Shown here one piece after another: positions 5,102-57,480 of a stretch of 64,000 nucleotides of DNA. Under the pieces are notes generated by a model that worked only from the letters and a program-made list of their open reading frames with translations, was not told the DNA's origin and searched no databases. The position numbers were made by a program, and so were the translations under genes. Within the stretch, counting starts at the first letter, position 1; every line of letters begins with the position of its first letter. Location of the stretch: assembly GCA_050250855.1 (NCBI GenBank), contig JBFWNW010000002.1, positions 69,925 through 133,924 on the forward strand, read 5' to 3'. This stretch comes from Candidatus Babeliales bacterium. GTDB lineage: Bacteria; Babelota; Babeliae; Babelales; JACPOV01.

Positions 5102-5848
5102 ATGCAAAAACGGTTATTATTATCTCTTTCCCTGCTTTTGGCAAGTTCTTCACTCTTTTGCCAACAAGAAACACCTAAACTTAATAACACTAATACGATC
5201 ATTGCCTGGGATTTTCATGACGTTTTAGTAAGAAAAAATTGGTCTAATATAGGGTCTTCTGCCCTTAATTTGATAAAAAAAGATTGGAGTCTTTTAGGCT
5301 ATTTATTCTCTCCTATTTCATTTTATATTCCAGCGTATAGAATAATAAAAAATTCAAGCAACCCTGAAGAAATTGTTGATAAACTGATCAGCAATTATGG
5401 TTATTTAAAACAACATGAAGATGACCTTTTAAATCTTGTTAATCAGCATGACCTTATTCCAGAATCTGTTACTGCACTAGAGCTCTTAAAAAAACAAGGT
5501 TACAAAAATTACCTAGCTTCAAATATGGGACCAAAATCATACACAATAAATCAAAAACGTTTTTCAGAATTTATGAATAAGTTTGATGGTAAATTTATTC
5601 CTTCTGACAATACTGAACAGGATAAAAAACCAAAACCATTTTTAGAATATTTTTATGGTCTGCGATCATTTCTTAATACACAAAAAGATATAACAGATCA
5701 AACAACTATCATTTTCCTTGATGATAGTGCAAAAAACATTAAAGCAGCAAATGAATCTCAAAAAAATATTATTGGGCTGCACGTTACTGATCCCAAAAAT
5801 ATAAAAAATCTTTTGAATAACCATATTACTCTAAATCAGGATGTATAA
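5102..5848 (+). CDS. Secreted HAD-superfamily hydrolase-like protein
   Basis: GGAGG lies 5 nt before the ATG at 5102. Signal peptide MQKRLLLSLSLLLASSSLFC. Motif I-like AWDFHDVL, motif II ASN, motif III KKPKP, motif IV FLDDSAKN. Confidence 0.65.
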   Translation: MQKRLLLSLSLLLASSSLFCQQETPKLNNTNTIIAWDFHDVLVRKNWSNIGSSALNLIKKDWSLLGYLFSPISFYIPAYRIIKNSSNPEEIVDKLISNYGYLKQHEDDLLNLVNQHDLIPESVTALELLKKQGYKNYLASNMGPKSYTINQKRFSEFMNKFDGKFIPSDNTEQDKKPKPFLEYFYGLRSFLNTQKDITDQTTIIFLDDSAKNIKAANESQKNIIGLHVTDPKNIKNLLNNHITLNQDV

Positions 5849-9673: not shown

Positions 9674-10519
9674 TTATGGATTTCCATATTTTTTGAATAT
9701 TTTTTCAACAAAAATACGGTTTGATTCTTTAGAAAGCTTTACTGCATGGTTATAATCAGCATTAAGTTTAAACGTTTTTTCTTCATTGCAACGATCAAAA
9801 CCATAGCCTTCCCATAATTTTTCCCAGTTTTCTTTATACTCCAAACAACTGAGAATGGTAGGCAATGCTCCTTCAAGCCAAGCATCATTTTTTCTATAGA
9901 TTTCGCACAGTTCAATAAAATCATCTTTATATACCGCTGGTATATATGCTATATCTGCATATGCATGACAGATGCAATTATCTCCCCAGTTAGCTTTTAA
10001 CATTTCCTTATAGCAATCAGGCGTTTCTTTATAAGCATTCTTTAGTGCTTCATAACCAAATTTTGTTGGCCACCAACAATTAGTAATTGCTCTAATCCCT
10101 TTATTTAAATTAACAGCTTCTCCAATATCATATCTATGCCAATTAACGAATACATGATTAGCGGCCCATATTTTTGATAGATCAAAACGATTATAACGCC
10201 AAACATTCATTAAGCAATCATCGTGACAGAACAAATACCCTTTATAATCAGGAAATCTTTGCATAGCATCACTAAGAGCATAATAACTAAATGCCCCTCG
10301 CTCCTCTTCAATCGCATAAACGTCAGGACACTCACTTGGTCCATAAAAAATTACTTTAGAAAAATAAGGCTCATAGATCTTTTTTAAAAATGAGATTGCT
10401 TCATAATGAGCAAAATTAAAATTTATAATTAAAAGAACATCATCAAACATTTTTCCATAATTAGAAAAAATAATAGTAAAGACAAAAAAATAAACAATTC
10501 TTTTACTAAAAAAAACCAT
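9674..10519 (-). CDS. Hypothetical protein, last gene of the glycan locus; possible glycosyltransferase
   Basis: 281-aa ORF with a hydrophobic N-terminus (IVYFFVFTIIF). I recognised no family motif. Function is guessed from context only. Confidence 0.35.
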   Translation of the reverse strand: MVFFSKRIVYFFVFTIIFSNYGKMFDDVLLIINFNFAHYEAISFLKKIYEPYFSKVIFYGPSECPDVYAIEEERGAFSYYALSDAMQRFPDYKGYLFCHDDCLMNVWRYNRFDLSKIWAANHVFVNWHRYDIGEAVNLNKGIRAITNCWWPTKFGYEALKNAYKETPDCYKEMLKANWGDNCICHAYADIAYIPAVYKDDFIELCEIYRKNDAWLEGALPTILSCLEYKENWEKLWEGYGFDRCNEEKTFKLNADYNHAVKLSKESNRIFVEKIFKKYGNP

Positions 10520-10531
10520 AGGTTTCCCTTT

Positions 10532-11611
10532 CTAGTGTGTTATAGTTTTATAATAGCTATAAGCCTTTTCAAGCATAGCTATTTGCTCCGGTGTAAAAAT
10601 TAACTCTCTTTTGTAATCAGGAATAGTTAATGATAACACGGTATCAATAAAATATTCTGTAGAAAATAGAAATGCCATTTCGCTCTTCAAGTAAGCTTTA
10701 ATATTTTTAATATATTGATCATATTCTTCTTTTTTCATCTTTTTCATAAATTTATATAATTCTCGATTATTTTTAAATTTACGGCGATCAATAAAGCAAC
10801 TTGGCCATACACAATCGGTAATATTTTCTGCACCCCAATAGACTGGTACACAGCCAGAAACTAAACAATCAAAAATTTTTTCTGTAATATAGCCAGGAAC
10901 ATTATTACAATTTTCATAACAAATGCAAAATTTATAATTTTTTAATACTGGGCGTTTATGAGGAACCTTGCCTTTAAATGTCTTAAATTGCGATGCAGGC
11001 CAACCACCTTCACCATAAAAATCAAATTTTTTTCTCCTTTTACTTTTTTTCTCAAAAAAATTAATTACTTCTCTTCGTGCAGAATATAACTGGCCAACTC
11101 CTCCTGACATCTTATAGCTTACTATCATAGTGCACAATTTCTTTTGATCAAAAGAAGGAATATCTTTTTCTATTTCTAATGATGGTTGAGGATAAAAAAA
11201 CTTTAAAGCTTTATCGTTATCAATCATTGCATCAGATAAATATAAAATTTTTTTACAATAAGGCCGATAATCAAAACTATACATTCCTGGCGCAATCAGA
11301 GGCGGTTCAAAAACTCCAAAAATAGATTTTTCTTGCAATGTTTTCGGCAAAAGATCGACATTAGGAGTATTTAAAAAAAAAGCCCCTATACAATTATCAT
11401 CATTATAATCACTAAGCTCTAAACAGCTTGGATGATAACCAAGATTTTTTATGGCTTGTGCAAAATCGTAAAACATCTTCCATCCATTATCGCGACAAGG
11501 GTAATTAGGAATATTTAATATTTCATCAGACAAATTAAAATAAAATACTTTTTCTGTTCCAACTACAGTAAAAAAAGCTAAAAAAACTAATACTCTTATC
11601 TTATTATTCAT
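10532..11611 (-). CDS. GT10-family alpha-1,3/4-fucosyltransferase (copy A1)
   Basis: GT10 signature FCICYENCNNVPGYITEKIFDCLVSGCVPVYWG; compare H. pylori FutA FENS..GYVTEKI...IPIYWG. Signal-like N-terminus. Confidence 0.85.
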   Translation of the reverse strand: MNNKIRVLVFLAFFTVVGTEKVFYFNLSDEILNIPNYPCRDNGWKMFYDFAQAIKNLGYHPSCLELSDYNDDNCIGAFFLNTPNVDLLPKTLQEKSIFGVFEPPLIAPGMYSFDYRPYCKKILYLSDAMIDNDKALKFFYPQPSLEIEKDIPSFDQKKLCTMIVSYKMSGGVGQLYSARREVINFFEKKSKRRKKFDFYGEGGWPASQFKTFKGKVPHKRPVLKNYKFCICYENCNNVPGYITEKIFDCLVSGCVPVYWGAENITDCVWPSCFIDRRKFKNNRELYKFMKKMKKEEYDQYIKNIKAYLKSEMAFLFSTEYFIDTVLSLTIPDYKRELIFTPEQIAMLEKAYSYYKTITH

Positions 11612-11618
11612 ATATTTT

Positions 11619-12467
11619 CTACGCCTTCAAGTAACTATGTTGTAAATGGGGATTAAAAAAAAGAGCCGCGAGCGCAACATTTGATACGCCATGGATAAAA
11701 TGATCACACTTAGAAAGCAACTGTGTTTCAATCAAAACCTGTTCTCCCATTAATGCTCTATTTTTTACTTGTTGGTTCCATATATGTAATCCTGTATCAT
11801 CAAGAGATCGATAGGAGTCATAATAGATCACCTTACCAGGTAATTTCTTTTTTAATTCATCAAGAACTCGTTGATCATCAGTCGCTACCAAAAATTGTGC
11901 TCCCTTATGCTTAGAAGCCTCTTCTATATACTGCTTAAGAGGAATTCGCGGTGCTTCATTATGGTCTGTTCTGCGTACATGAATACCGACCGTCTTTTTA
12001 CCTTGCATATTTTTGTGATAAAAATCATCAATTTTTGCACTAATTTGAGGTTTTATATGTATATATTTTTCTATATATGAGTTAATAAAAGATCTATATT
12101 CATAAGAAAAATTTTGTTCATATCCAATATATCCGCAAGGTATAGCTTGACCATCTGGCGTAACATAATCTTCATGTATTACATCACCAGAATTATACTG
12201 AGCTTCTGAGACGGGATAAAAATAATATTCCCAAATATTATCACTTCCATTATAAGTTCCTGATACTTTATAATAAGCAGGAGCACGGTTCCAATGTACC
12301 ACAAGATCTAGCCCTTTTTCTTCACACCATATAAGATGACTGACTACACCAAATATATTAGAAAAAAGACCTGCCCAGCGACCACCTAAAACATAATGAT
12401 CTTTTGAAAAAGAGAAAAAACTAAAAAATATAATCGACATACAAAGAAAACAAGAATAATTTTTCAT
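11619..12467 (-). CDS. GT23-like (FUT8/NodZ-type) fucosyltransferase (copy B1)
   Basis: GIHVRRTDH ... FLVATDDQRVLDELKKKLP ... GLHIWN ... closely parallels FUT8 IGVHVRRTDK ... VYLATDDPSLLKEAKTKYP ... GLHNRY. Signal-like N-terminus. Confidence 0.75.
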   Translation of the reverse strand: MKNYSCFLCMSIIFFSFFSFSKDHYVLGGRWAGLFSNIFGVVSHLIWCEEKGLDLVVHWNRAPAYYKVSGTYNGSDNIWEYYFYPVSEAQYNSGDVIHEDYVTPDGQAIPCGYIGYEQNFSYEYRSFINSYIEKYIHIKPQISAKIDDFYHKNMQGKKTVGIHVRRTDHNEAPRIPLKQYIEEASKHKGAQFLVATDDQRVLDELKKKLPGKVIYYDSYRSLDDTGLHIWNQQVKNRALMGEQVLIETQLLSKCDHFIHGVSNVALAALFFNPHLQHSYLKA

Positions 12468-12502
12468 TAACTATTTCCTCAACAAAAATCTGTTTTATAG
12501 CT

Positions 12503-13387
12503 CTAAGAAATAACCAAGCCTACCTTAAAATCTTCCGTCATTTTTAAATATATGCTTTTTAATAATGGATTAAAAAACAATGCACCCAAGGAAACATTTG
12601 ATACAGAGTGAATAAAACAATCGCACAAAGAAAGTAGCTTTGATTCTATAAGCACTTGCTCTCCCATAAGAGCTTTATTATCTACTTGTGGGTTCCATAT
12701 ATGCAATCCTTTATTATTTGAAGAACGATACGCATCATAATAAATAACGTTTCCCTTTAGTTTTTGTTTTAAAATATCTAACACTGATTGATCATCGGTC
12801 GCTACTAAAAACTGCACATCTTTAAAAGAATTTGCCACCTGAATATAAGCATTAAGAGGAATGCGTGGCGATTCATAATGATCTGTTCTTCTAACGTGAA
12901 TTCCTATTGTTGCTTTACCTTCCATATTTTTTTTATAAAAATCATTCATTTTTTCAAGAATAGAAGGCTTTATGTGAATATATCTTTGAATATAGGAGTT
13001 AATAAATGATCTATATTCATAAGAAAGATTTTTTTCATATAAATAATATAAACATTCAATAGCTTCTCCATCTGGTGGCGTATAATCTGCGTGCAATTCA
13101 TCACCAAGTTGATAGTGAGCTTCTGAAACAGGATAAAAATAATATTCCCAAATATTATCACTGCCATTATAACCATCACTCATCTTGTAAAAAGAAGGCT
13201 CATCTTTCCAATAAACTACTAAGTCCATTCCCTGTTTTTCACACCAAATGAGATGATTAATGACCCCAAGGATATTTGAAAATAACCCTGTCTGCCGACC
13301 TGTCAAAACATAATAATTATTACTTAAACAAGAAAATGATTGTCCTAAGAAAAAAACTCCTATAATAATTTTTACAAAAAACCGCAT
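12503..13387 (-). CDS. GT23-like (FUT8/NodZ-type) fucosyltransferase (copy B2)
   Basis: Paralogue of 11619..12467: GIHVRRTDHYESPRIPL, FLVATDDQSVLDILKQKL. Confidence 0.75.
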   Translation of the reverse strand: MRFFVKIIIGVFFLGQSFSCLSNNYYVLTGRQTGLFSNILGVINHLIWCEKQGMDLVVYWKDEPSFYKMSDGYNGSDNIWEYYFYPVSEAHYQLGDELHADYTPPDGEAIECLYYLYEKNLSYEYRSFINSYIQRYIHIKPSILEKMNDFYKKNMEGKATIGIHVRRTDHYESPRIPLNAYIQVANSFKDVQFLVATDDQSVLDILKQKLKGNVIYYDAYRSSNNKGLHIWNPQVDNKALMGEQVLIESKLLSLCDCFIHSVSNVSLGALFFNPLLKSIYLKMTEDFKVGLVIS

Positions 13388-13390
13388 AAC

Positions 13391-14461
13391 TTATCCTATT
13401 TTTTTAAACAAAAAAGAACAATAATCCTTTGCCTTTTCAAGGTTAGTTATTTGTTCCGGGTTAAAAATAAGCTCTTTTTTATAATCAGGAACTGTTAATG
13501 ACAAAACTAAATCAATAAAATATTCCATAGAAAATAAAAACGCCATTTCACTCTTTAAATATGCCTTGATATTTTCAATATATTGATCGTATTCCTCTTT
13601 TTTCATATGCTTAATGAAATTGTACAACTCTTGATTATCCTTAAATTTACGCCGATCAATAAAGCAATTTGGCCATACATAATCGGTAATATTTTCTGCA
13701 CCCCAATAAATAGGGACACATCCTGCAACTAAACAATCAAAAATTTTTTCTGTAACATATCCTGGCGCATTGTTGCTATTTTCGTAACATATACAAAACT
13801 TGTAATTTTTGAGCACTGGTCTTTTGTGAGAAACCTTCCCTTTATAGGTTTTAAATGACGCTGGCCATTCAATACCATATACATCAAGCTCTTGGACTCT
13901 TTGAGGATCTGAATCAAAAAAATTAACTACACTAAGACGTTGGGTAAATAATTCTCCAGGCCTTTCTATAAATTTATAGGTTGCAATAAGTGCACATAGT
14001 TTTTTTTCATGAAAATCTGGAATATCCTCTTCAATCTCCAGTGAAGGTTGAGGATAAAAAAATTTAAATCTCGTATTGTTATCAATCTTATTATCCAAGA
14101 GATATAAAGTTCTAAAAGGATAGAAGGTTGTTGTATAATAACCAGGAGCAATAATAGGCGGCTCCCATAATGAGAATAAACATTTTTCAGGAATTAGATT
14201 CGGTGAAATATAATTGGGCAAATTAATAAAAAAAGCACCTGCATAATCTTTTGATCCCAGATAATCAAATTCTTTTACCTCATAACCAAGTTTTTTTGCC
14301 GCCTGAGCTAATTCATAAAAAACTCTATAAGCAGCATCTCTTTGCGGATAAGAAGTATCAGTAAAAGTAACTTCTGGAAGATTTATATAAAAAATCCTTT
14401 GATCAGCTTCACTCAAAAAAACCTGTAATAAAAAAGTAATTCCTAATAAATAGCGCACCAT
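13391..14461 (-). CDS. GT10-family alpha-1,3/4-fucosyltransferase (copy A2)
   Basis: FCICYENSNNAPGYVTEKIFDCLVAGCVPIYWG. The C-terminal half is nearly identical to copy A1. Confidence 0.85.
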   Translation of the reverse strand: MVRYLLGITFLLQVFLSEADQRIFYINLPEVTFTDTSYPQRDAAYRVFYELAQAAKKLGYEVKEFDYLGSKDYAGAFFINLPNYISPNLIPEKCLFSLWEPPIIAPGYYTTTFYPFRTLYLLDNKIDNNTRFKFFYPQPSLEIEEDIPDFHEKKLCALIATYKFIERPGELFTQRLSVVNFFDSDPQRVQELDVYGIEWPASFKTYKGKVSHKRPVLKNYKFCICYENSNNAPGYVTEKIFDCLVAGCVPIYWGAENITDYVWPNCFIDRRKFKDNQELYNFIKHMKKEEYDQYIENIKAYLKSEMAFLFSMEYFIDLVLSLTVPDYKKELIFNPEQITNLEKAKDYCSFLFKKIG

Positions 14462-15933
14462 TATACTATGCCAAAATTATACAGCTTTCTCTTTTGATAT
14501 AGCTGCTGATCATACCTAAAATATTGTGCATTACGCACATATAAAGGATCGTTATGATCAGAACCATCTAAAGGGTAATTATTCTTAATAAGCTGCTCAT
14601 AGAATATTTTTTCTTTACCGAGTGAACGGGCTACTTCAGCCAGTTCATTATCGCAGTAATATGATTTATATTCTGGATAATAAATATATCCAAACCGTTT
14701 ATAATACATTCTGCCTATAATAGGATAAATAACATAGTCTTTAGGATCTCTGCCATCTGAAAAATTAAGGATACCGTCAAAATCAGGAAAATGTTTCAAC
14801 ATTTGACGCACTATAACTACATCATAGTTTTTTACGATAGGTTCAAGATCATCACTTACTACTAAAATAACGTCAAACTTATCAATAAAATCATCGATAT
14901 CTTTATTGTATGCTTCAATTTTTGAACTACTATTGCCAAAGCGATAAGAAAGATTTGGCAAACTATCAAGAATACTTATTACCTTGGCATTATTCATAGT
15001 TGGATCATCTTGATCGCACGTAATTAAAAAATGGTAGGGAATGGTTCCTGATAACATCTCATAGTACTTTTTTAAATATTGGAAAAATTGTACCGGACGA
15101 TAACGCGTTGGAATTTTTATAAGTAGACGAACTAACTGCTCTCTTGACTGCTTGCAAGCATGAAATGCTATAGTATCTATATCTTTTTTATATGCACTAT
15201 AGGGCCTTGGAGGTAAACAATCAACATAAGTACCTTCTTCAATACGGCCCACATCATAGCGCCAATTAATTTTATCTATTCTCGTGCGTGGTGAAACTAC
15301 ATCAGTTTTGCCCAATCGTATACAGCGACTCTCATAACCATCCCACGCAAGTACCGTTTTATATAACATTTTTTGATCAGTGGTCCATCCAATTGCAGTA
15401 TCATGCCATTCTTTAATCTTTTGAGGGATATCCTCTTTTGTGAAAATCTTAAAAATTTCTGCAAAAATTTTACCTTTACCTGCAACATAGCACATAGGAA
15501 TTTCTTTGAATTGTCGTTCAAACTCTTCGCTATCTCGATAAACAACAAAAACATCATCAGCTAAATCTTTAATACGCTCGGTAAAATAATCTCGAGAAAG
15601 AGGTAATAAGTCTATATCAGAAACTATGCAACAATCATTGGGAAATAACAAGGGCAAAAATAAGCGAATACATTGAGCATATAATGACGTTGGTATGCCT
15701 GGAATAGGCTCAAAGCGAATAATGTCACCTAATGATTCATCTATTTCTACACTTTTATCTGCAATTAAAGCTAACGTTGGCCTTATACCAACTACTTCTT
15801 TCCACATCTTGGCAACCAGCGGCCAGTATTCTATATAATTGGGATTTGCATCAGTAGACAAAATAACACGATCAAGCGTTAAAGCTTCTGCTTTAAAAAT
15901 ACATAAAAAAAGTACTACGTATATTCTTCTCAT
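14461..15933 (-). CDS. Hypothetical two-domain protein, possible glycosyltransferase
   Basis: 490-aa ORF with signal-like N-terminus MRRIYVVLFLCIFKAEA and 1-nt overlap with the downstream gene. No family motif recognised with confidence. Confidence 0.4.
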   Translation of the reverse strand: MRRIYVVLFLCIFKAEALTLDRVILSTDANPNYIEYWPLVAKMWKEVVGIRPTLALIADKSVEIDESLGDIIRFEPIPGIPTSLYAQCIRLFLPLLFPNDCCIVSDIDLLPLSRDYFTERIKDLADDVFVVYRDSEEFERQFKEIPMCYVAGKGKIFAEIFKIFTKEDIPQKIKEWHDTAIGWTTDQKMLYKTVLAWDGYESRCIRLGKTDVVSPRTRIDKINWRYDVGRIEEGTYVDCLPPRPYSAYKKDIDTIAFHACKQSREQLVRLLIKIPTRYRPVQFFQYLKKYYEMLSGTIPYHFLITCDQDDPTMNNAKVISILDSLPNLSYRFGNSSSKIEAYNKDIDDFIDKFDVILVVSDDLEPIVKNYDVVIVRQMLKHFPDFDGILNFSDGRDPKDYVIYPIIGRMYYKRFGYIYYPEYKSYYCDNELAEVARSLGKEKIFYEQLIKNNYPLDGSDHNDPLYVRNAQYFRYDQQLYQKRKLYNFGIV

Positions 15934-15943
15934 AGCTATCTCT

Positions 15944-17305
15944 TTATTCAGTACATGAAATTAAACAAATATCTTCTTTGTCTTTGGATAAATCATAAGA
16001 TTGTATAGTTGAAAGTGATAATACAGTATTTCTTTTTACTATCATGCCACATGAATCTGCAGGAGACATAAATTTTACTTGTGAAATAGCTAAACCATCC
16101 CATAGATATGAAGCATTTTGCTGAGAAGAAAAATCTTTTTTGGATAGTATACAGAAATTTGATTTTGTATCATGCATAGCTTCTGCACAAATTTCTCTAT
16201 TTTTTAATGTTTCTAAAGCTTTAACGTCTGTAATAACACAATAATAATCATAATTAACATCTTTTAACCAAAAATCAGGTGATGCATCCTGCGATGGGTT
16301 AATAACAAACGTATAATGAGAGTAAAGAGAAGCTAATTGTTCATAATCATTTTTATGAGATAAGTCTCCACAGCAAATAACGTTTAGATTTTCATTTTTA
16401 TATAAACCTTTAAATGCGCTTAATGTCTCTGCAAGTGTATTTGGATCATTAGCATAGATCAAAAAAGGAATAGATTTTTTTTGATACGATTCTCGATAAG
16501 GTCTTTGTTCAAGGGGTTTGTATGCCGACCGGCTGCTAATAACCTTTCTTAAAAATTGTTGCTTTTCCCAGTTAGTTGCACCATCTGCAATTGGATTATC
16601 TTCATTGTAGCGATATAAAATGTTTGGGTTAAATTTGTAATGATTAATTGCCATCTCTATAATTGGATACACCCAAGAAACGTCCTGTGCCATAGAGAAA
16701 AACATACCTTCATGTAGTAAATCTTTAAGAGCAACTTCTCTAAAAAGCCATGCATACATGCAACGAGGAGGACTAAAATACCAATTTTGACGAATAAGAT
16801 TACGCTGCTTTACCATAGGAGGAATATCACCAGACCATGGTGCATAACCGTTTCTTGTTCCCCAAAAATTACCGTAGGTAAACCAAATAGATTCATCACT
16901 AAACTGTTCATTGATTGATGATAAAACATCTTTTGTAGTAAAGGTATCATCGCCATCCAAAATTACTGCAATTTCATGAGGTTTGCAGAATTTATAAAAG
17001 GCATACACAATATTTCTGAGCGCAAGACCACGAATTTCATTTTTAATAAGAGTAACGCGATGATGTATATCATACTGATCAATAAAAGCCTTTGCATTTG
17101 CATAAGTATTATCAGGAGAACAATCATCTATATAAACAACGCGAAATTTTTCATAATCCTGCATAAGAACTGATGCTAAATTTTCATTGCATACATCTTG
17201 ATTTTTATAAGAAGGAATAATAACAACAATATCATGCTGATATGCTGCTGCTATAGTATATACTCCCCCTACAAAAATTAATCCAAAAAATAGTTTTAAA
17301 TTCAT
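15944..17305 (-). CDS. GT2-family glycosyltransferase with an extra C-terminal domain
   Basis: VVIIPSYKNQD...VVYIDDCSPDNT and DGDD (DXD) motifs. Preferred start MNLKLFF at 17305 forms an ATGA overlap with the upstream stop. An alternative start lies at 17335. Confidence 0.8.
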   Translation of the reverse strand: MNLKLFFGLIFVGGVYTIAAAYQHDIVVIIPSYKNQDVCNENLASVLMQDYEKFRVVYIDDCSPDNTYANAKAFIDQYDIHHRVTLIKNEIRGLALRNIVYAFYKFCKPHEIAVILDGDDTFTTKDVLSSINEQFSDESIWFTYGNFWGTRNGYAPWSGDIPPMVKQRNLIRQNWYFSPPRCMYAWLFREVALKDLLHEGMFFSMAQDVSWVYPIIEMAINHYKFNPNILYRYNEDNPIADGATNWEKQQFLRKVISSRSAYKPLEQRPYRESYQKKSIPFLIYANDPNTLAETLSAFKGLYKNENLNVICCGDLSHKNDYEQLASLYSHYTFVINPSQDASPDFWLKDVNYDYYCVITDVKALETLKNREICAEAMHDTKSNFCILSKKDFSSQQNASYLWDGLAISQVKFMSPADSCGMIVKRNTVLSLSTIQSYDLSKDKEDICLISCTE

Positions 17306-18243
17306 ACACACTTCCTTATTTGCTTTAAGTACCATTGAAAATTTTTAATATCATTTCTTGAACTATAAATATGGGTATTTTCATTAACAAAATCACCTTG
17401 CCAGGTAATATAAAAAGGAATTGAAACCTGATTATAATCCAAAAGCATAGGAACTTTCTGCGTATAGTCTTGTTTATGAATGCAAAGATCTTTTAAATAG
17501 GCTAAAATTCCCAACAACGCTTGTTCATAGCGAGCACAACCAAACCCTTCAGGAGCTGTCCCATCATCAATAAAATTTCTTAAATCTTTGCTCATGTTAT
17601 ATAAGGGAGTAATAAAAAGATCTTGTGCTTTTTGCGCTACACCAATAACACCAGCCATAACTGCCTCTTGTGAAAGTATCCATTGATACTCGGGAGCATC
17701 AAGATTAAATTTATTTCTTACATAACGCGTTGTCTGCCATGCAATGGGATGTCTAAATTTACCATTATCACGCTCATTACCAATAGTAGCTAAAAAATAT
17801 CCTTTGTGCTGTATATATTCAAATAAATCATCAAGAGGACGCAATACCGTTGAGCCTGCATCTATCCATAGAACATAGGGAAATCTTTCTAAAGCCTGTT
17901 TTATAACAACAGGTTTCCATGCAAACCATCCAGGAACCATTCTTCCTGCCTTATTAATTACTACCTGCCTGAGTAAGTCAGGATGCGTTAATTCAACATT
18001 ATAAACTGCTATATTTTGAATAGTTTTAAGAAAAGAAATTTGTTGTTCTTCAAGGCCTAAATCAAAAACAGCAATTTCGTTAATATTGTCATAATTTGTA
18101 GCATGTAATGATCCAATTAAATTTAAAAGCTTAGAAAAATATTTTGCATCACATGCAGTACAATAATACTGAGGAATAGCTTGTAGAAAAGCCATTCCTC
18201 CTAATAAAGCTAACCATACATAAAGAGTCTTTCTTTTTATCAT
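17302..18243 (-). CDS. Nucleotide-diphospho-sugar-transferase-like protein
   Basis: Signal-like N-terminus. FAWKPVVIKQALERFPYVLWIDAGS resembles GT-A families with a W-K-P...D-x-D/S core. Family assignment is uncertain. Confidence 0.45.
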   Translation of the reverse strand: MIKRKTLYVWLALLGGMAFLQAIPQYYCTACDAKYFSKLLNLIGSLHATNYDNINEIAVFDLGLEEQQISFLKTIQNIAVYNVELTHPDLLRQVVINKAGRMVPGWFAWKPVVIKQALERFPYVLWIDAGSTVLRPLDDLFEYIQHKGYFLATIGNERDNGKFRHPIAWQTTRYVRNKFNLDAPEYQWILSQEAVMAGVIGVAQKAQDLFITPLYNMSKDLRNFIDDGTAPEGFGCARYEQALLGILAYLKDLCIHKQDYTQKVPMLLDYNQVSIPFYITWQGDFVNENTHIYSSRNDIKNFQWYLKQIRKCV

Positions 18244-18249
18244 TACTCT

Positions 18250-18840
18250 TTACTCAAAAAATGTACGAATATCTATAGTATCACTGACAATCGTTGTCTG
18301 AATTGCATAACGCAAATAAGTATAACGATATTTGAAAGTTGCAAGAACTGGTTCATACCCATATGCAGGTTCTTCTGTATCATGTACAACAAAAATATCT
18401 GCATTATGGCGCAAACGCTCAATATCAACTCTTCGTCTATCACCAGGACGATGATCAACAAAAACCACTGACCAATAGCGATCTGTTCCTACAGCATCCC
18501 ATAATTCTGGCTTTGGATTCTTTGCCCAATCATCTTCAAAAACAGGAATATAGCTAAAATGATGCCAATCTCGTGCCAAATCTATAAATAAAGAAAGCCA
18601 TCTTTTATCAGTATCTGTTGTAAGAAGAAACCGTTTTGTTACTGAACAAACAGCATGCAAAAGTGGCGTACTATAATCCCCAGATCCAAGTTCTAAAATA
18701 GGCCCTTTAGTATTTGCCACGACCGTCATAAGAGGAGCCATGTGAGTCCCATAATTGCCATCACCAAGACGTCTATTCGCTTCTATAAACTGGCCATTTA
18801 AACTCAATAAAATTATGAATAAAAATAATTTTTTTTGCAT
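18250..18840 (-). CDS. Possible SAM-dependent methyltransferase-like protein
   Basis: ILELGSGDYSTP resembles Rossmann motif I, and VVFVDH / VVHDTE strands follow. Start MQKKLFLFIILL at 18840 avoids overlap with the upstream gene. Confidence 0.35.
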   Translation of the reverse strand: MQKKLFLFIILLSLNGQFIEANRRLGDGNYGTHMAPLMTVVANTKGPILELGSGDYSTPLLHAVCSVTKRFLLTTDTDKRWLSLFIDLARDWHHFSYIPVFEDDWAKNPKPELWDAVGTDRYWSVVFVDHRPGDRRRVDIERLRHNADIFVVHDTEEPAYGYEPVLATFKYRYTYLRYAIQTTIVSDTIDIRTFFE

Positions 18841-18853
18841 ACTATTCCCTCTT

Positions 18854-19774
18854 TTAAAAAGACCAATCAATATCCCAAATATCTAAATCTTTAAAGTAAC
18901 CTTTTCCATACTGTTCAAACCATGCCAATACCTGTTTTTTCCTCCATAAAATTGGTTTATCCCATACAGAAAAATCAAGAAATTCATAACCTTTAAACCA
19001 ATATACTGGAGATGGTTGCGTTCTTAATCCTCGCTCATCTTTTGAAGGGAAATAACGCACATTAATTTCCTGGCAAGATTTTTCTGGTTGCCTGATACGC
19101 TCAAGACAGCGATACCACGCTTGTTTTTCTAATAAGTTTTGCCAATTAACAAACTGAAAATGCAAAAGGCCATATTCATAACCCTGTAAACGGAATCTTT
19201 TTCCTTGCACGGGAAAACTACGATTATGCAAAAAGTATGAAGGAAAATTTGAAACACCATCATCGCAAAAAATAACAGGTTTATAATCATTGGTCCATTT
19301 TGAGTCATCAAAACGATAGCGATCTATTGTTCTCCAGAGTTGAATCCAACAAACCTCCATACTTTCTCCTGGCTGCAAAGAAAGAATAAGTTTGCGTAAA
19401 AAATTATTATCTGAACAGTTTGCAGTAAACATTTCATCCGCATCAATTAAAACAAAATGAGTACCACCAAGTGCTCTGCCAGCATCTAATAATTTCTGCT
19501 TGTTATCACTTTCTTTGCCAACTTGCCAGCCAGATTGTTCATTGCGCAAAATGACAAATTCTTTGCCAAGCTTTTTACAACATGATTCAACCAGAATTTT
19601 AGTGCTATCTTCAGAATTATCATCAAGCGTAACAAATGCATCAACATAAAAAGACAATGCTTGTAAACATTGCTCAATACATTGCTCTTCATTTCTTACT
19701 TGCATAAGACTTACTATTTTAGGTGAAGCAGTTAAAGATAAAAAAGTCCCTAACAATAATAATAATTTAAACAT
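18854..19774 (-). CDS. GT2-like glycosyltransferase
   Basis: VSLMQVRNEE...VTLDDNSEDST and LIDADEMF (DXD) motifs. Start MFKLLLLLG at 19774 is preceded by AAGGAG. Confidence 0.6.
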   Translation of the reverse strand: MFKLLLLLGTFLSLTASPKIVSLMQVRNEEQCIEQCLQALSFYVDAFVTLDDNSEDSTKILVESCCKKLGKEFVILRNEQSGWQVGKESDNKQKLLDAGRALGGTHFVLIDADEMFTANCSDNNFLRKLILSLQPGESMEVCWIQLWRTIDRYRFDDSKWTNDYKPVIFCDDGVSNFPSYFLHNRSFPVQGKRFRLQGYEYGLLHFQFVNWQNLLEKQAWYRCLERIRQPEKSCQEINVRYFPSKDERGLRTQPSPVYWFKGYEFLDFSVWDKPILWRKKQVLAWFEQYGKGYFKDLDIWDIDWSF

Positions 19775-19787
19775 ATTCAGCACTCCT

Positions 19788-20636
19788 TTACTGAACAAAT
19801 GCTTCTTTTTTTAACCAGCTTCCTGCCCAATGGTGCACCGCATATGATTCAGGTTTTTGCCATTCTGAGGCAGGGGTTCCTCGTTGTTCATAACCACATG
19901 GGTAAAAGTAACTAGCGGGAAAAGCTACGATACGAAATTCTTGCATCATAGAGGGAACATATTTTAAAAAAAGTTTAGTAAAAAACAAAGGACCCGTTCT
20001 TAGTATAATCTGAATCTCATGAGATGAATTACGCAACTCTTCAATACATTTTTGCAATAATGGATGATGAGGAATAGACGCTATTAAAGCATTGTTAAGC
20101 TGGACCATATTGGTATCCAAAGGTTGAATACCGGTGTAAAAATCATAAATACATAAAGAATTCATTGATTTTAAACATTCAAAATCGGTATCAATGTAAA
20201 TACCCCCAAATTGCTCTAAAATTTCATAACGCCAAATATCAGACTTTTCACCATAATTCTTTGAAGCATCAAATAGATCTTTATTACGCCACGCAAATGA
20301 TGCTACATCTGCATCTGTCCATAATTTATATTCCCAGCCAGGATTATGCTTCAACCAGCTTTCTTGATAAGCGCGGTATTTTTCAGGAAAAGGACTACCA
20401 AGCCAAATTTGATGTATTATTTTAGGGATACGAACAGACGTCGGCACAATTCTTGCTGGTGAAAATAAGTTATATAAACGCTCAAAAAAGTTTTTAAGCA
20501 TCATATTATTATTCTTTTCAAGAATATGTTTATATGAATCAGCTTGCATTGATGTATTAAAATCTACCCATATAAAATTTTCCTGTGCACAAACTAAAGA
20601 ACTAAAAAGAAACGTTATGCTTAATAGTTTTTTCAT
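19788..20636 (-). CDS. GT32-type glycosyltransferase with a DXD sugar-binding region
   Basis: IPKIIHQIWLG...NPGWEYKLWTD...SDIWRYEILEQFGGIYIDTDFECL is a classic Gly_transf_sug/OCH1-type signature. Signal peptide MKKLLSITFLFSSLVCA. Confidence 0.8.
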   Translation of the reverse strand: MKKLLSITFLFSSLVCAQENFIWVDFNTSMQADSYKHILEKNNNMMLKNFFERLYNLFSPARIVPTSVRIPKIIHQIWLGSPFPEKYRAYQESWLKHNPGWEYKLWTDADVASFAWRNKDLFDASKNYGEKSDIWRYEILEQFGGIYIDTDFECLKSMNSLCIYDFYTGIQPLDTNMVQLNNALIASIPHHPLLQKCIEELRNSSHEIQIILRTGPLFFTKLFLKYVPSMMQEFRIVAFPASYFYPCGYEQRGTPASEWQKPESYAVHHWAGSWLKKEAFVQ

Positions 20637-20638
20637 AA

Positions 20639-21670
20639 TTATACCCTTGCTTGTTTATAAGATTTTTCTGGTACAACCTTGTGCGCTAAATACCAAAAAT
20701 ATGCTTCCTTTAAACCATTTTTCAATGAAGTTTTTGCTGTCCAACCAAGCTGTGAAATTTTATCAACATTTAATACTTTTCTTGGCGTGCCATCTAAAGT
20801 ATTGATATTAAAAAGGATTTCTCCTGCATACCCAACGATCTCTTTAATTAAAGAAGCTAGTTCGGCAATTGTTATATCTTTACCGGTCCCAATATTAATA
20901 TGACCCGATTCTTCATAACTATTCATTAAAAATAAGCATGCTTGCGCTAAATCATCGACGTATAAAAATTCTCGCAACGCTTTACCCGTTCCCCATAAAG
21001 AAACTGACGGTTTATTTTCTTCTTTTGCTGCATGAATTTTTGCAATAAGTGCAGGAATAACGTGCGATGATTCAAAGTCAAAATTATCATGAGGACCATA
21101 AAGATTTGTTGGCATACAAGAAATAAATTTTGTACCATATTGCCTGTTATAGCTTTTGCATAAAAGTATGCCGGCAATTTTTGCAAGCGCATACGGCTCA
21201 TTTGTTTTTTCAAGTTCATCGGTCATTAAATACTCTTCTTGTATTGGTTGAGGACAATTACGAGGATAAATGCAAGAAGAACCTAAAAATAAGAGCTTTT
21301 TAACGCCATTGGTATACGATGCATGAATAATATTTGCTTCAATCATAAGATTGTCATAAATAAATGAGGCTGGAAAATCATTATTTGCTTTAATGCCGCC
21401 AACTTTTGCAGCAGCCAAAAACACATATTCCGGTTTTTCTTGGTTGAAAAAATCATGTACCGCTGCTTGGTTGCGCAAATCAAGTTCTGCAAAACTACGC
21501 GTTATAAGGTTAGTATATCCTTCAGCTTGCAACGCTCGCATTAAAGCAGAGCCAACCAACCCCTGACCTGCTATATAAATTTTTGCCTGCTTGTCCATAT
21601 GTGCTTCACTAACACCAGTAAAAAGATTAAAAATCAAGCCTATACTCATTATCTTTGTTACGTAGTTCAT
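20639..21670 (-). CDS. fcl: GDP-L-fucose synthase (GDP-4-keto-6-deoxymannose 3,5-epimerase/4-reductase)
   Basis: Collinear with E. coli Fcl from [11 protein letters not shown] (ATG at 21598) to the C-terminus: [33 protein letters not shown]. An upstream in-frame ATG at 21670 has a strong AGGAGA SD and adds the hydrophobic 24-aa segment [24 protein letters not shown]. Confidence 0.9.
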
Positions 21671-22859
21671 GAGATTCTCCTGATAATTTTTGAGCTGCAA
21701 TGTAGATATTTGAGCCGGTTGCCTCACTTTTTAATTCCCATGCAATTTGTTCTAAATCTGCATCCATCATTAGACAAACTAAATCTTTAAAGGTTGTTTT
21801 TGGCTCCCAACCAAGAAGTTTTTTTGCTTTGCTAGGATCACCCAGTAAAATTTCAACTTCAGTCGGTCTGAAATAACGAGGATCAACCGCTATCAACAGC
21901 TCACCAGTTTTTTTATTGTATCCTTTTTCCTCAGCACCTATACCGCGCCATTCTACCGTAATACCAACACGTTCAAATGCTAATTCAACAAACTCTCTTA
22001 CGGTATGCGTTTGTCCGGTTGCAACAACCCAATCTTCAGGCTTTTCATACTGTAAAATAAGCCACATTGCTTCTACATATTCTTTGGCATAGCCCCAATC
22101 TCGTTTTGCATCAAGATTACCTAAATAAATAGGATCTTTTTTACCTAAAGAAATTGCGGCTACCGCACGCGTAATTTTTCTGGTTACAAAGGTTTCGCCA
22201 CGTAAAGGAGATTCATGATTAAATAAAATACCATTTGCAGCAAACATGCCGTAGGCTTCTCGATAGTTTACCGTTATCCAATAGGCATAAAGTTTTGCAA
22301 CACCATAGGGAGAACGTGGATAAAAAGGGGTCGTTTCTTTTTGAGGAATTTCTTGTACGTTGCCATACATTTCTGAAGTTGATGCTTGGTAAAATTTCGT
22401 TGTTTTATCAAATCCGGTTACACGCAATGCTTCTAATAAACGCAAGGTACCTATGCCATCAGCATTTGCTGTATATTCTGGCACTTCAAAAGAAACTTTT
22501 ACATGAGATTGTGCTGCAAGATTATAAATTTCATCAGGCTTAATTTCTTGTATCAAACGAATAAGATTGGTAGAATCGGTCATATCACCAAAGTGTAAAA
22601 AGAAATTTCCTTTCTTTTTATTATGAGGATCACGGTATAAAGGATCTATGCGATGCGTATTAAACATTGATGAACGACGTTTAATGCCATGAACTTCATA
22701 CCCTTTACCCAGTAAAAATTCAGCCAAGTAGGCCCCATCTTGACCAGTTATACCGGTAATTAAGGCAACTTTTTTCTTCATACTCTGCTCTCCTGCAAAA
22801 AAAGTACTGAATCCTAAGCAAGCTACTGCAACAAAAATTTTTTTATAAGAGTGCTTCAT
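21627..22859 (-). CDS. gmd: GDP-mannose 4,6-dehydratase
   Basis: Collinear with E. coli Gmd from [16 protein letters not shown] (ATG at 22781, AGGAGA upstream). The longer ORF from 22859 adds [26 protein letters not shown]. Confidence 0.92.
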
Positions 22860-22874
22860 ATCCTATTTCCTTTT

Positions 22875-23903
22875 TTATGTATAATGATGGCTATTTTTTT
22901 CCCGTAATTGATGCAAAATATGTTTTACTTTATCTGTCTGATCTCGCTTCGCTATTAAAAGAACATCATCTGTTTCTACAACACATAGATCTTCAACGCC
23001 TATAAGTGCTACGAGCTTTTTTGGCACCTGAACAATATTATTAGCTGCGTGCAATTCAATAACTTCTGTTTGCTGTTGGCTATGCTTTTTGTGCAAAGAA
23101 AGAAATATTTCTAAGTTGCCAACATCTGACCATGTAAAAGAGCAGGGCTGTACATACACGGCATTACTTTTTTCTAATACCGCATAATCAATAGAAATAT
23201 TTTCGGCATCTTTGTAATCTGCTTTATGTTCAAAAAAATCACATACCACCTTATATAGCTGTTGGGCATGACGATTGTATTCTTCTATAAAAACAGAACT
23301 TTTGGCACAAAAAATACCTATATTCCATAACATGGTATCCATGGTACTATATACATCCGCCAATTGCGCTGAAGGTTTTTCATGAAAACGAGAAACTTTT
23401 ACAACATCATTTTTTTGCGCTGCCATTTCTATGTAGCCATAGTTTGTTGCGGGAAAATCAGGACGAATTCCTAACAATGTTATGGCATCATGAGCTTGCG
23501 AAAATTCTAACGCATTATTTAAATGTTTGGCAAATTGGTCATCTTCTACAATAAAAGCATCAGCAGGTAAAAAAGCTATAATTGCTGAAGGGTCTTTTTG
23601 TTGAATATAAAGCGTAGCCAAAAGTAATGCTGGCGCTGTATTGCGGCCAATTGGTTCAGACAAAATGCCGCCTATAGAATCTCCCAAAAGACTTTTAATA
23701 GAATCAACCTGCTGCTCAGTTGTCATAATAAAAATATTATGTTTTTCAACAATTAAAGAAGCACGCATAACAGTACGCTCAAGCAAAGAATTTTGATCAT
23801 CAAGAGAGAGCAGCTGCTTTGGCTTTTTCTCTCTACTCAAAGGCCATAAACGCTCACCTTTGCCTCCAGCTAAAATAACAATATAGCGTGATGTTATATC
23901 CAT
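22875..23903 (-). CDS. manC: Mannose-1-phosphate guanylyltransferase (nucleotidyltransferase domain only)
   Basis: VILAGGKGERLWPLSREKKPKQLL N-terminal NTP-transferase signature. At 342 aa there is no C-terminal isomerase/cupin domain. Confidence 0.8.
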   Translation of the reverse strand: MDITSRYIVILAGGKGERLWPLSREKKPKQLLSLDDQNSLLERTVMRASLIVEKHNIFIMTTEQQVDSIKSLLGDSIGGILSEPIGRNTAPALLLATLYIQQKDPSAIIAFLPADAFIVEDDQFAKHLNNALEFSQAHDAITLLGIRPDFPATNYGYIEMAAQKNDVVKVSRFHEKPSAQLADVYSTMDTMLWNIGIFCAKSSVFIEEYNRHAQQLYKVVCDFFEHKADYKDAENISIDYAVLEKSNAVYVQPCSFTWSDVGNLEIFLSLHKKHSQQQTEVIELHAANNIVQVPKKLVALIGVEDLCVVETDDVLLIAKRDQTDKVKHILHQLREKNSHHYT

Positions 23904-23909
23904 AACTAT

Positions 23910-24623
23910 TTATTTTTTTCTTCGTTCAAAAAACAAACGACAAAATGTTTTAGCTGCTTCTTTCATAATTGCTACTGAAAGCTTTGAATCGCCATGAATT
24001 CTATTACGTGCATGAATCGGAATTTCTGTTATACGCAAACCATCCTCTTTAAAGCGATACAGTGATTCAATGCAGAAAGAAAATCCTTTTGAACTTACTT
24101 TTTTATAGACATGAGGCTTTAATTTTTGTACAGAATATAAACGGTAAGCACCGGTACAATCGTACGGCATACCAAGGCCTCGTTTAATTAAATTTCGCCA
24201 AAAGTAAGTAAATGGTAAACGAATTCTTCCCCAACCGCTCATGCCACCGCCATGAATATAGCGTGAACCAATAACGACATCATGAACATCTCTTTTTTCA
24301 AAAAGAGCAGGAATATAACGCGGATCGTGCGTAAGATCTGCATCCATCGTAATTAAAAATTTATAATTATGTTTTTGCGCATATTCAAATGCCTGCACGT
24401 GAGCCGTTCCTAAACCAAGCTTTGCAGGGCGATGCATAACATGCACAGAAGGATCTTTTTTACTTAAATCATCAAGAACTTTTCCGGTGCCATCTGGAGA
24501 ATTATCATCACAAAAAAGAATATCAACATCTTCTTTGTGCTTCTTTATTTCTTCATACAAAATTAAAACATTGTCACGTTCATTATAGGTGGGAACAAAA
24601 ACTAAAACTTCATTTTTTTGCAT
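23910..24623 (-). CDS. Polyprenyl-phosphate sugar synthase, Dpm1/Ppm1-like GT2
   Basis: VFVPTYNERDN...DILFCDDNSPDGTG...HRPAKLGLGTA...ITMDADLTHDP is the canonical dolichol/polyprenol-phosphate mannose synthase pattern. Confidence 0.8.
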   Translation of the reverse strand: MQKNEVLVFVPTYNERDNVLILYEEIKKHKEDVDILFCDDNSPDGTGKVLDDLSKKDPSVHVMHRPAKLGLGTAHVQAFEYAQKHNYKFLITMDADLTHDPRYIPALFEKRDVHDVVIGSRYIHGGGMSGWGRIRLPFTYFWRNLIKRGLGMPYDCTGAYRLYSVQKLKPHVYKKVSSKGFSFCIESLYRFKEDGLRITEIPIHARNRIHGDSKLSVAIMKEAAKTFCRLFFERRKK

Positions 24624-24632
24624 AGTATAAAC

Positions 24633-29485: not shown

Positions 29486-29500
29486 AGGAAAAGTTCCTCT

Positions 29501-51377: not shown

Positions 51378-51486
51378 TAATAAGTAGGACAAATCAAGGG
51401 TCTATTCTTGCAATCAAAAATAGCCCTTGACAAAAAATTAATATGAAGGGTATTGTGTGAAAGTAATGTCAAAAAAAGGAATATTA

Positions 51487-52638: not shown

Positions 52639-52650
52639 ATGTAGAAAAAA

Positions 52651-57478: not shown

Positions 57479-57480
57479 TT

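Follow-up and report, generated by a model that had tools for sequence, protein, structure and literature searches.

Predicted Sec-type signal peptides on Gmd, Fcl and eleven transferase-type proteins in a glycan locus of a Babeliales bacterium

In the textbook view, both the synthesis of nucleotide sugars and the Leloir glycosyltransferases (GT) that use them belong to the bacterial cytoplasm, and the outside of the cell is reached just via lipid-linked intermediates. The window considered here, a stretch of 64,000 nucleotides of contig JBFWNW010000002.1 (positions 69,925 to 133,924, assembly GCA_050250855.1), contains a glycan locus in which this division of labour may well be different. The source genome (G000; 1.22 Mb, 36% G+C, 11 contigs, estimated 95% complete) belongs to the lineage Candidatus Babeliales/Dependentiae, formerly TM6. 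A single string of minus-strand genes, with hardly any gaps between them, runs from wecB (30685) down to position 9674. The upstream half of this string is without signal-like N-termini, whereas in the downstream half gmd, fcl and the eleven transferase-type genes that follow all encode one. These 13 genes are listed below in their order along the string, with the family matches and the segment that encodes the signal-like N-terminus.

21627-22859, minus strand: gmd, GDP-mannose 4,6-dehydratase, with a signal-like extension of 26 codons (22782-22859) ahead of the canonical ATG at 22781; PF16363, 523 bits
20639-21670, minus strand: fcl, short-chain dehydrogenase/reductase (SDR) of the GDP-fucose synthase type, with a signal-like extension of 24 codons (21599-21670) ahead of the canonical ATG at 21598; PF01370, 217 bits
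19788-20636, minus strand: GT32 protein (DXD sugar-binding region, TcdA/TcdB-like), signal-like N-terminus of 17 amino acids (20586-20636); PF04488, 62 bits, and PF12919, 43 bits
18854-19774, minus strand: weakly GT2-like protein, signal-like N-terminus of 16 amino acids (19727-19774); PF13704, 24.4 bits, under the cut-off of 27.5
18250-18840, minus strand: protein of 196 amino acids without family match, signal-like N-terminus of 16 amino acids (18793-18840)
17302-18243, minus strand: GT8-like glycosyltransferase of the GT-A fold, signal-like N-terminus of 22 amino acids (18178-18243); assigned by AlphaFold2 model and Foldseek
15944-17305, minus strand: GT2 glycosyltransferase, signal-like N-terminus of 21 amino acids (17243-17305); PF00535, 57.7 bits
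14461-15933, minus strand: two-part protein of 490 amino acids without family match, signal-like N-terminus of 17 amino acids (15883-15933)
13391-14461, minus strand: GT10 fucosyltransferase, copy 1, signal-like N-terminus of 19 amino acids (14405-14461); PF00852, 58.4 bits
12503-13387, minus strand: GT23-like paralogue, signal-like N-terminus of 19 amino acids (13331-13387); 67% identical to 11619-12467, with Pfam matches below the cut-offs
11619-12467, minus strand: NodZ/FUT8 (GT23)-like protein, signal-like N-terminus of 21 amino acids (12405-12467); PF05830, 29.0 bits, and PF19745, 28.3 bits
10532-11611, minus strand: GT10 fucosyltransferase, copy 2, signal-like N-terminus of 18 amino acids (11558-11611); PF00852, 57.9 bits
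9674-10519, minus strand: STELLO-like glycosyltransferase, signal-like N-terminus of 19 amino acids (10463-10519); PF03385, 34.1 bits against a cut-off of 27.8

Translation of the minus-strand open reading frames (ORFs) between 9674 and 22859 reproduced, letter for letter, all eleven transferase-type N-termini that had been quoted in a first-pass annotation made from the letters of the window. The family labels given there fared less uniformly: GT32 (by PF04488), GT2 and both GT10 assignments held, the GT23-like labels are borderline, the protein called GT2-like stays under its cut-off, and the one called methyltransferase-like has no family match. Two proteins that had been left unlabelled could be placed, one as STELLO-like (34 bits) and one as a GT8-like enzyme with a GT-A fold. 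No Pfam or NCBIfam match was obtained for 14461-15933 and 18250-18840, loose thresholds included. Three of the starts lie inside longer ORFs and are backed by motifs resembling a Shine-Dalgarno (SD) sequence, namely MNLKLFF (AAGGAAG before the second ATG of the GT2 gene, at 17305), MQKKLF (GAGGGA, ATG at 18840) and MFKLLL (AAGGAG, ATG at 19774).

The two GT10 copies, which share 59% identity, are both well recognized by PF00852 (cut-off 23.9 bits). An AlphaFold2 model of copy 1, with a predicted local distance difference test (pLDDT) score of 95, was compared by Foldseek with the PDB, where the alpha1,3-fucosyltransferase of Helicobacter pylori (2NZW/2NZX) was the best match and FUT9 the next (probability 1.0). 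Invariant columns of the family are kept, R175, E227 and E238-K239 among them, and since the donor-binding columns are conserved, GDP-fucose would still be required wherever these enzymes sit. By profile, GT-B fold of the model and donor motif, the pair thus belongs to the alpha1,3/4-fucosyltransferase family, and the corresponding activity is predicted. The GT23-like protein 11619-12467 is barely over its cut-offs (PF05830, 29.0 against 28.3; PF19745, 28.3 against 27.6). The model of the GT8-like protein (pLDDT 96) has a GT-A fold of the GT8/GT24 type and was matched by Foldseek to XXYLT1, the catalytic domain of UGGT, LgtC and glycogenin (probability 1.0, TM-scores about 0.5); the GT8 profile PF01501 did not match the protein itself and is recorded for just two of its homologues.

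Signal-like N-termini were called with a hydropathy and charge heuristic of our own rather than with a trained predictor. The first versions were too loose, flagging 60% of the ORFs, and stricter ones still make wrong calls, such as missing the GT10 protein at 13391 because of a false membrane span; comparative evidence was therefore weighted above the classifier. With the stricter rules, the signal-like share of the 1170 ORFs of the genome is 33.7% (strict) or 40.6% (liberal), in agreement with the high published figure for the phylum. The longest run in the genome under the liberal rule comprises 13 genes and is exactly this locus. When gene order was shuffled 50,000 times, a run of 13 was reached in 0.5% of cases (P about 0.005). 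For such a genome the run is real but moderately remarkable by itself, and the unusual feature is the type of protein on which the signals are found.

The architecture of these N-termini is that of signal peptides. Lysine or arginine precedes the apolar core in all 13, and the cores have a median length of 13 residues (range 8-18, two of them borderline at 18). For comparison, the two secretins of the same window, which have to pass the inner membrane, have cores of 11 and 12 residues, and bitopic anchors such as that of the GspC-like protein have 16-18 or more. The 15 residues that follow each core carry a net charge of -2 to +1 and are neutral or negative in most of the eleven transferase-type proteins (counted by hand from the translations). 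With basic n-regions and neutral or acidic segments behind the core, the positive-inside rule predicts that the catalytic domain lies outside; the n-regions are likewise net positive in 12 of 13 signal-bearing Gmd copies. On inspection, alanine, serine or glycine closes most of the 13 listed segments, and alignments of homologues reveal a fixed position for this preference. Four residues before the tyrosine of the first strand, 58% of 101 GT10 homologues have Ala, Gly or Ser, as compared to 15-16% overall, and Ala alone accounts for 45% (4.9% overall). At the equivalent site of 109 homologues of the GT8-like protein the share is again 58% (16% overall), and aliphatic or small residues occupy the site two positions ahead of it. 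Such an enrichment of Ala and Ser at a fixed position is the pattern expected from cleavage by signal peptidase I, and it is the strongest point in favour of signal peptides that the alignments offer.

In the AlphaFold2 models, the N-terminal helix covers residues 2-19 in GT10 copy 1 (first strand 23-26) and residues 3-17 in the GT8-like protein, and the first strand begins within 3-8 residues, without a stem. A Golgi-type (type II) signal anchor would be expected to have 17-22 apolar residues followed by a stem, and the N-termini differ from this in span length as well as in the missing stem. Neither a twin-arginine consensus nor a lipobox was seen on inspection of the 13 N-termini. A lipoprotein signal was considered for 12503-13387 and rejected, as the cysteine after S-F-S does not form a lipobox. 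A signal for twin-arginine translocation (Tat) was considered for 14461-15933, which starts with MRR, and was rejected by inspection and by the outcome of a search for TatC, which was not found in the 95% complete genome. Taken together, the 13 N-termini look like cleavable Sec-type signal peptides of the signal-peptidase-I class, from which translocation and cleavage of the proteins may be inferred.

The gmd product matches PF16363 over residues 33-362, has the N-terminal GxxGxxG Rossmann motif and is 59-71% identical to Gmd of relatives. As the first-pass annotation had pointed out, its reading frame continues without a stop for 26 codons ahead of the canonical start. An AAGGAA motif precedes the upstream ATG (22859). 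The description given there of fcl, with an ATG at 21670 that follows AGGAGA by 5 nt and lies 24 codons ahead of the canonical methionine, is also correct. Here, as in most relatives, fcl immediately follows gmd, and from this adjacency and the SDR profile its product is presumably a GDP-L-fucose synthase. Its extension overlaps the 3' end of gmd by 44 nt (21627-21670). We considered that the two extensions could be artefacts of gene calling, which is ruled out by orthologues that lack internal starts. Gmd has a C-terminal tail of about 40 residues past the Pfam domain, the end of which is encoded in the 44 nt shared with the start of the fcl signal. Variable C-terminal tails are found throughout the Babeliales Gmd ORFs examined (365-425 amino acids, as compared to about 340-355 for typical database Gmd).

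Gmd with a signal-like extension occurs in 10 of the Babeliales genomes examined, G000 and 9 relatives, among them G001 of the same genus, G002, G004, G013, G021, G023, G033 (two copies) and G039 (two copies); a chlamydial genome of 3.1 Mb has two tandem copies of this kind. No ATG, GTG or TTG is present near the canonical start in G004, G023, one of the G033 copies, both G039 copies and both chlamydial copies, and just a TTG or GTG could serve as alternative start in the second G033 copy and in G021. If the relatives without internal start produce the enzyme, its translation thus has to include the extension. Fcl has a signal-like extension in G004, G013 and G039, again without internal start in G039. 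In G033, ManC too has a signal-like N-terminus without internal start, and its gene adjoins the two tandem paralogues of signal-bearing Gmd (locus L054, G033:C1:55000-75000). In most lineages an SD-like motif is located ahead of the upstream start, and it is mostly missing before the internal methionine, gmd of the window being the exception.

A maximum-likelihood tree of 28 Gmd sequences requires two changes of the signal trait, as compared to a mean of 9.5 for shuffled labels, and none of 500 shuffles gave a number as low. The chlamydial copies group with a signal-bearing Gmd of Babeliales (support 93/92). The signal-bearing Gmd of G023 is sister to a signal-less copy in the same genome (95/83), which indicates a recent duplication after which one copy gained a signal. 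In a control set of 116 diverse Gmd representatives (clusters at 50% identity), the Rossmann fold forms the very N-terminus in 85, and a single one has a hydrophobic extension; the extensions of eukaryote-type representatives are hydrophilic. The tandem gmd pair of the chlamydial metagenome-assembled genome (MAG; locus L183, G043:C1:482000-502000) has transposase-like ORF fragments as neighbours, and the G+C content around it is 36.6%, as compared to 40% in another region of the same contig. Together with the grouping on the tree, this suggests gene transfer between Dependentiae and Chlamydiae.

In the transferase families, a hydrophobic N-terminus is a family trait of which the sequence itself is not conserved. 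It is present in 107 of the 120 best protein-database homologues of GT10 and in 61 of 75 found in genome records, and 107 of 120 homologues of the GT8-like protein are signal-like as well. Most of 21 fetched GT23-like homologues have a hydrophobic N-terminus straight before the first strand. In 18 regions fetched from Babeliales relatives, signal-like N-termini were found on the GT8-like protein (3/3), the 490-residue protein (5/5), GT32 (5/5) and the GT2 enzyme 15944-17305 (3/5), and on all STELLO-like and GT23-like homologues. The STELLO-like protein has a signal-bearing homologue in G023 and a signal-bearing paralogue in its own genome (G000:C2:48496-49332), and the weakly GT2-like protein has a signal-bearing homologue in G013. 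The orthologues of proteins that are signal-less in the window give a different picture: none of 5 Dpm1-like proteins and none of 11 oxidoreductases was flagged, the single flagged WecB out of 7 is likely an artefact of upstream extension of the ORF, and out of 3 flagged ManC among 13 just that of G033 looks genuine on inspection. The closest relatives of the GT10 proteins come from Babeliales/Dependentiae and from many environmental Chlamydiae (among them Parachlamydiales, Rhabdochlamydiaceae, Simkaniaceae, Anoxychlamydiales), with a few from MAGs labelled Verrucomicrobia, Pseudomonadota or Acidobacteriota; those genomes that were sized measure 1.1-3.2 Mb. In G002, an in-frame signal-like stretch lies upstream of GT10 (locus L076, G002:C12:208535-211828) with no ATG, GTG or TTG before it, and the public annotation starts the protein at an internal methionine. 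This GT10 gene may be damaged or may use a non-canonical start codon.

The remaining part of the string and a divergent neighbour are listed next, followed, purely as context, by a secretion-type cluster further along the window.

22875-30685, minus strand: upstream signal-less genes, being manC, a Dpm1/ArnC-like GT2, a multi-pass GT-C enzyme of the PMT_2 type, an oxidoreductase that is a fusion of ADH and GFO domains, wecC and wecB; Pfam domains start at residues 2-26
30817-32298, plus strand: second PMT-like multi-pass GT-C enzyme, divergently transcribed; PF02366, 22.3 bits, near the cut-off
51457-60033, plus strand: type II secretion/type IV pilus-like cluster with a GspC-like protein, two secretins and a PilM-like protein; PF11356, PF00263 (twice) and PF11104

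It had been stated before that ManC, the Dpm1-like GT2, the 725-residue oxidoreductase, WecC and WecB start directly in their catalytic folds, and indeed their Pfam domains begin at the N-terminus. The gene of the second PMT-like enzyme is conserved, with wecB as its neighbour in G001 and G030 and gmd/fcl in G025. The oxidoreductase (25982-28159, minus strand) combines a zinc-type alcohol dehydrogenase with a GFO/IDH/MocA oxidoreductase domain, and is present in 11 Babeliales relatives at 38-78% identity, in most of them with its gene next to wecC.

The genome has features of a host-dependent organism. At least three genes encode nucleotide carriers of the TLC (ATP/ADP translocase) type, a family that matched none of 14 control genomes. 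If nucleotides are imported via carriers in the inner membrane, host nucleotides must already reach the periplasm, and GDP-mannose, NADPH and UDP-sugars could do so too. For export, there is one signal peptidase I (G000:C4:187009-187695), and in addition to the secretin cluster two T2SSE ATPases are encoded elsewhere in the genome. The suggestion that the enzymes pass through the secretin system thus has a basis insofar as the machinery exists; nothing beyond that ties it to them. The cultured Dependentiae member Chromulinavorax destructans grows in the host cytoplasm, has no genes for lipopolysaccharide and has predicted signal peptides on 44% of its coding sequences (PMC6561590).

The signal-bearing proteins of this genome include others that one would not expect outside the cytoplasm. 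Two tandem seven-bladed WD40 (G-beta-like) proteins (33681-35117 and 35447-36886, plus strand) are identical in their first 30 residues, signal peptide included; with a domain type of the eukaryotic cytosol behind a Sec signal, they are probably secreted effectors. A second glycan cluster (L171, G000:C2:36878-56580) lies 13-33 kb upstream of the window. Its signal-less members are GT2 enzymes with C-terminal spans, a fusion of methyltransferase and GT2, and a 903-residue fusion of a Wzx-like flippase with a GT4; its signal-bearing members are the STELLO-like protein and a TylF-like O-methyltransferase (about 20 kb upstream) that depends on S-adenosylmethionine (SAM). The WD40 and TylF-like proteins indicate that, in this organism, proteins which normally need cytosolic partners or cofactors do carry signals.

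On these grounds we lean towards the view, which we consider somewhat probable, that the 13 enzymes leave the cytoplasm for the periplasm or a place beyond it and there use nucleotide sugars and NADPH of the host. The data show how the N-termini are built, that they are conserved, that several relatives have to translate the extensions and that the organism is host-dependent; from these, export, cleavage, compartment, donor source and acceptor are inferred. According to this scheme, Sec signals would carry Gmd, Fcl and the eleven transferases (two GT10, two GT23-like, a GT8-like, two GT2-type, a GT32, a STELLO-like and two without family match) out of the cytoplasm. Their site of action would be the periplasm or, if type II secretion follows, a compartment of the host. 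Gmd and Fcl, the pair predicted to convert GDP-mannose to GDP-fucose, would be relocated alongside the transferases, and fucose and other sugars would be made and transferred at the expense of host GDP-mannose, NADPH and other nucleotide sugars. ManC, the Dpm1-like GT2, WecB, WecC and the oxidoreductase, all without signal, would remain cytoplasmic, and the two PMT-type GT-C enzymes would receive polyprenol-phosphate-linked donors from them. The locus may thereby combine two routes, in which a first sugar is added outside from a lipid-linked donor and is then extended outside by Leloir enzymes. More tentatively, and with slightly less confidence than in export as such, we propose that Dependentiae and environmental Chlamydiae run a Golgi-like extracytoplasmic line, in which Leloir transferases are exported via Sec together with Gmd, Fcl and, in one relative, ManC, so that GDP-fucose would be made in situ from host GDP-mannose and NADPH and either the bacterial surface or host molecules would be decorated.

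Several observations weigh against export. The heuristic falsely flags the Rossmann-fold N-terminus of WecC, and with signal-like N-termini on at least about a third of all proteins the run of 13 genes is by itself just moderately unlikely. The residue that would become the first of the mature protein is lysine in 61 of the 101 GT10 homologues, which is not ideal for Sec export, and the four to six conserved cysteines of the GT10 family gave no pairwise covariation or paired loss that would suggest disulfides and thereby an oxidising compartment. Because Gmd needs bound NADP+, Fcl needs NADPH and Tat is missing, the cofactors would have to be loaded outside the cytoplasm. The nucleotide-sugar transporter families PF03151 and PF04142 had no match in G000, the result for PF04142 being weakly informative as this profile matched no control genome either; five generic carriers of the EamA/DMT type were the sole transporter-type matches in this search. 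Furthermore, ManC is signal-less in G000, so that GDP-mannose is made in the cytoplasm. The relatives are not uniform either: in G005, G006 and G040 a signal-bearing GT10 is accompanied by gmd and fcl genes in which the canonical start comes right after a stop codon, in G001 and G002 Gmd is extended and Fcl is not, and G029 apparently has no signals on Gmd and Fcl nor on GT10. A simple model in which the whole pathway is outside does not explain the patterns in G005, G006 and G040 or in G001 and G002.

In a different explanation, the N-termini are uncleaved tethers at the cytoplasmic face of the inner membrane and the glycan is built on a lipid carrier from cytoplasmic donors and then flipped. 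The enzymes would remain where nucleotide sugars, NADPH and SAM are as cytoplasmic metabolites, next to the signal-less ManC, WecB and WecC; the combination of signal-bearing GT10 with signal-less Gmd and Fcl in G005, G006 and G040 would need no extra assumptions, and the N-terminus, patchy as it is among Gmd, Fcl and ManC, could serve for optional channelling. A candidate flippase is at hand in the Wzx-like fusion protein, encoded 27 kb upstream on the same contig, and the two cores of 18 residues could span the membrane. We nevertheless hold this explanation to be unlikely. The charge distribution predicts the opposite topology (N-terminus inside, C-terminus outside) for all eleven transferases and most Gmd copies, a stable span would need more than the median core of 13 residues, and the N-termini cannot be distinguished from those of secretins of the same genome. 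According to the models, the missing linker would press the nucleotide-binding loop against the membrane. Finally, tethering leaves the enrichment of Ala and Ser at a fixed position unexplained, in two unrelated families. Export of the 13 enzymes, which the first-pass annotation had put forward as one of two options, is thus favoured by the Sec-type architecture, the residues at the junction, conservation in two phyla, and signals on Gmd, Fcl and ManC without alternative start; the genomes with signal-less Gmd and Fcl do not fit it.

It is also conceivable that gmd and fcl of G000 are translated just from the internal canonical ATGs, so that the eleven transferases alone would have real signals. 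A methionine is kept exactly at the canonical start in both genes, and the internal gmd ATG at 22781 has a strong motif of its own (AGGAGAG, 6 nt upstream), which leaves room either for internal initiation only or for dual isoforms; with two SD-backed ATGs, one gmd gene could possibly yield a cytoplasmic and an exported form. The fcl extension, lying within the 3' end of gmd, could be accidental, and the same-genus genome G001 lacks it. On the other hand, both upstream ATGs have SD-like motifs, that of fcl being better than anything before the internal ATG, and the upstream stretches encode complete signals of the n/h/c type, unlike random peptide. Together with the orthologues in G004, G023, G033, G039 and the chlamydial genome that lack an internal start, and with a trait that follows the Gmd tree, this makes restriction to the internal starts quite improbable. 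The second option of the first-pass annotation was that the N-termini are membrane anchors retained from eukaryote-like ancestors. In this case GT10, GT23, GT32 and STELLO-type genes would have come from eukaryotic hosts with their Golgi-type anchors. Golgi glycosyltransferases carry N-terminal signal anchors, and several of the families are typical of Golgi enzymes (matches to PF00852, PF19745, PF04488 and PF03385). This origin is not supported and appears highly improbable, since the cores are short and stems are absent, since the same type of N-terminus is found on Gmd, Fcl and ManC, which in eukaryotes work in the cytosol and lack an anchor, and since eukaryote-type Gmd has hydrophilic extensions. 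In addition, the signal of G023 Gmd arose after a duplication inside a Babeliales genome, and the structure closest to the GT10 model is a bacterial one, that of H. pylori.

The system that comes closest to export of this kind is found in Chlamydia trachomatis, where glycogen enzymes (GlgA and others) and the phosphoglucomutase CT295 have acquired signals for type III secretion and, within the lumen of the inclusion, work on UDP-glucose that is imported from the host (PMC4829429, PMC9251005). The similarity is that an obligate intracellular bacterium has re-addressed housekeeping enzymes of sugar-nucleotide metabolism, with a Leloir transferase working outside the bacterial cytoplasm on a host donor. 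Unlike in C. trachomatis, where type III signals are used and experimental evidence is available, the system described here has Sec-type peptides, centres on fucose, comprises some eleven transferases and is known from its genes. With the type II transferases of the Golgi (FUT9 in GT10, FUT8 in GT23) it would share enzyme families, an N-terminal hydrophobic targeting segment and non-cytosolic catalysis. In Golgi enzymes, however, an anchor of about 17-22 residues stays uncleaved and is followed by a stem, and the donors used are made in the cytosol and carried in, as opposed to the median-13 cores, the cleavage-type Ala and Ser, the missing stem and the signals on Gmd and Fcl at this locus. 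The H. pylori alpha1,3-fucosyltransferase, which shares the GT10 motif residues with the modelled protein, is a cytoplasmic enzyme that has no N-terminal signal and associates with the membrane via C-terminal helices.

The accepted form of extracytoplasmic glycosylation proceeds via polyprenol phosphate, in three-component systems with a GtrB- or ArnC-type GT2 and a GT-C enzyme or in systems such as Ppm1 with Pmt (PMC11127046). The string holds the corresponding components in its Dpm1/ArnC-like GT2 and the two PMT-type GT-C enzymes. Such a route needs no nucleotide sugar outside the cell, whereas the eleven signal-bearing enzymes are assigned nucleotide-sugar-binding Leloir folds. A further parallel is offered by the GT32 protein (19788-20636), which matches the model of the catalytic domain of TcdA/TcdB (43 bits), toxins that use nucleotide sugars of the host cytosol. 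Glycosylating toxins and effectors with a GT-A fold and DXD motif include TcdA/TcdB, Legionella Lgt and SetA. They are single-sugar modifiers of host proteins with translocation domains of their own or type IV secretion, in contrast to the whole multi-enzyme string found here. By analogy, the locus would be a Sec-signal variant of the Chlamydia principle, in which housekeeping glyco-enzymes are sent out of the bacterium, and neither a set of Golgi-type anchors nor a lipid-linked three-component route. The secretome of C. destructans includes eukaryote-like repeat proteins that are taken to act in the host; words beginning with 'glycos' or 'fucos' were absent from that paper in a word search, and it appears not to discuss glycosyltransferases or nucleotide-sugar enzymes (PMC6561590). 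In a literature search of partial coverage, we found no paper that ties Dependentiae, TM6 or environmental chlamydiae to glycosyltransferases, fucosyltransferases or GDP-mannose enzymes with signal peptides.

If export is correct, host-dependent bacteria would have a second solution to the problem of glycosylation outside the cytoplasm, which is to move the enzymes to the nucleotide sugars of the host, and Gmd, Fcl and ManC would have been fitted repeatedly with Sec signals. This would account for part of the oversized predicted secretome of Dependentiae and would implicate fucosylated glycans at the interface between these parasites and their protist hosts. Signal-bearing enzymes of this type would also provide a sequence marker of such a lifestyle that can be searched for in metagenomes.

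Some further observations concern the signal-bearing genes of the window more generally. Near-identical signal peptides are found on a pair of small paralogues without family match (3734-4120 and 4252-4890, minus strand), and a glycoside hydrolase of family GH1 (5848-7284, plus strand) has a signal peptide as well. The G+C content drops to about 30% at positions 10000-14000, where the distal transferase genes lie, as compared to about 36% for the genome, which may stem from codons rich in A+T in the signal-bearing genes or from a foreign origin.

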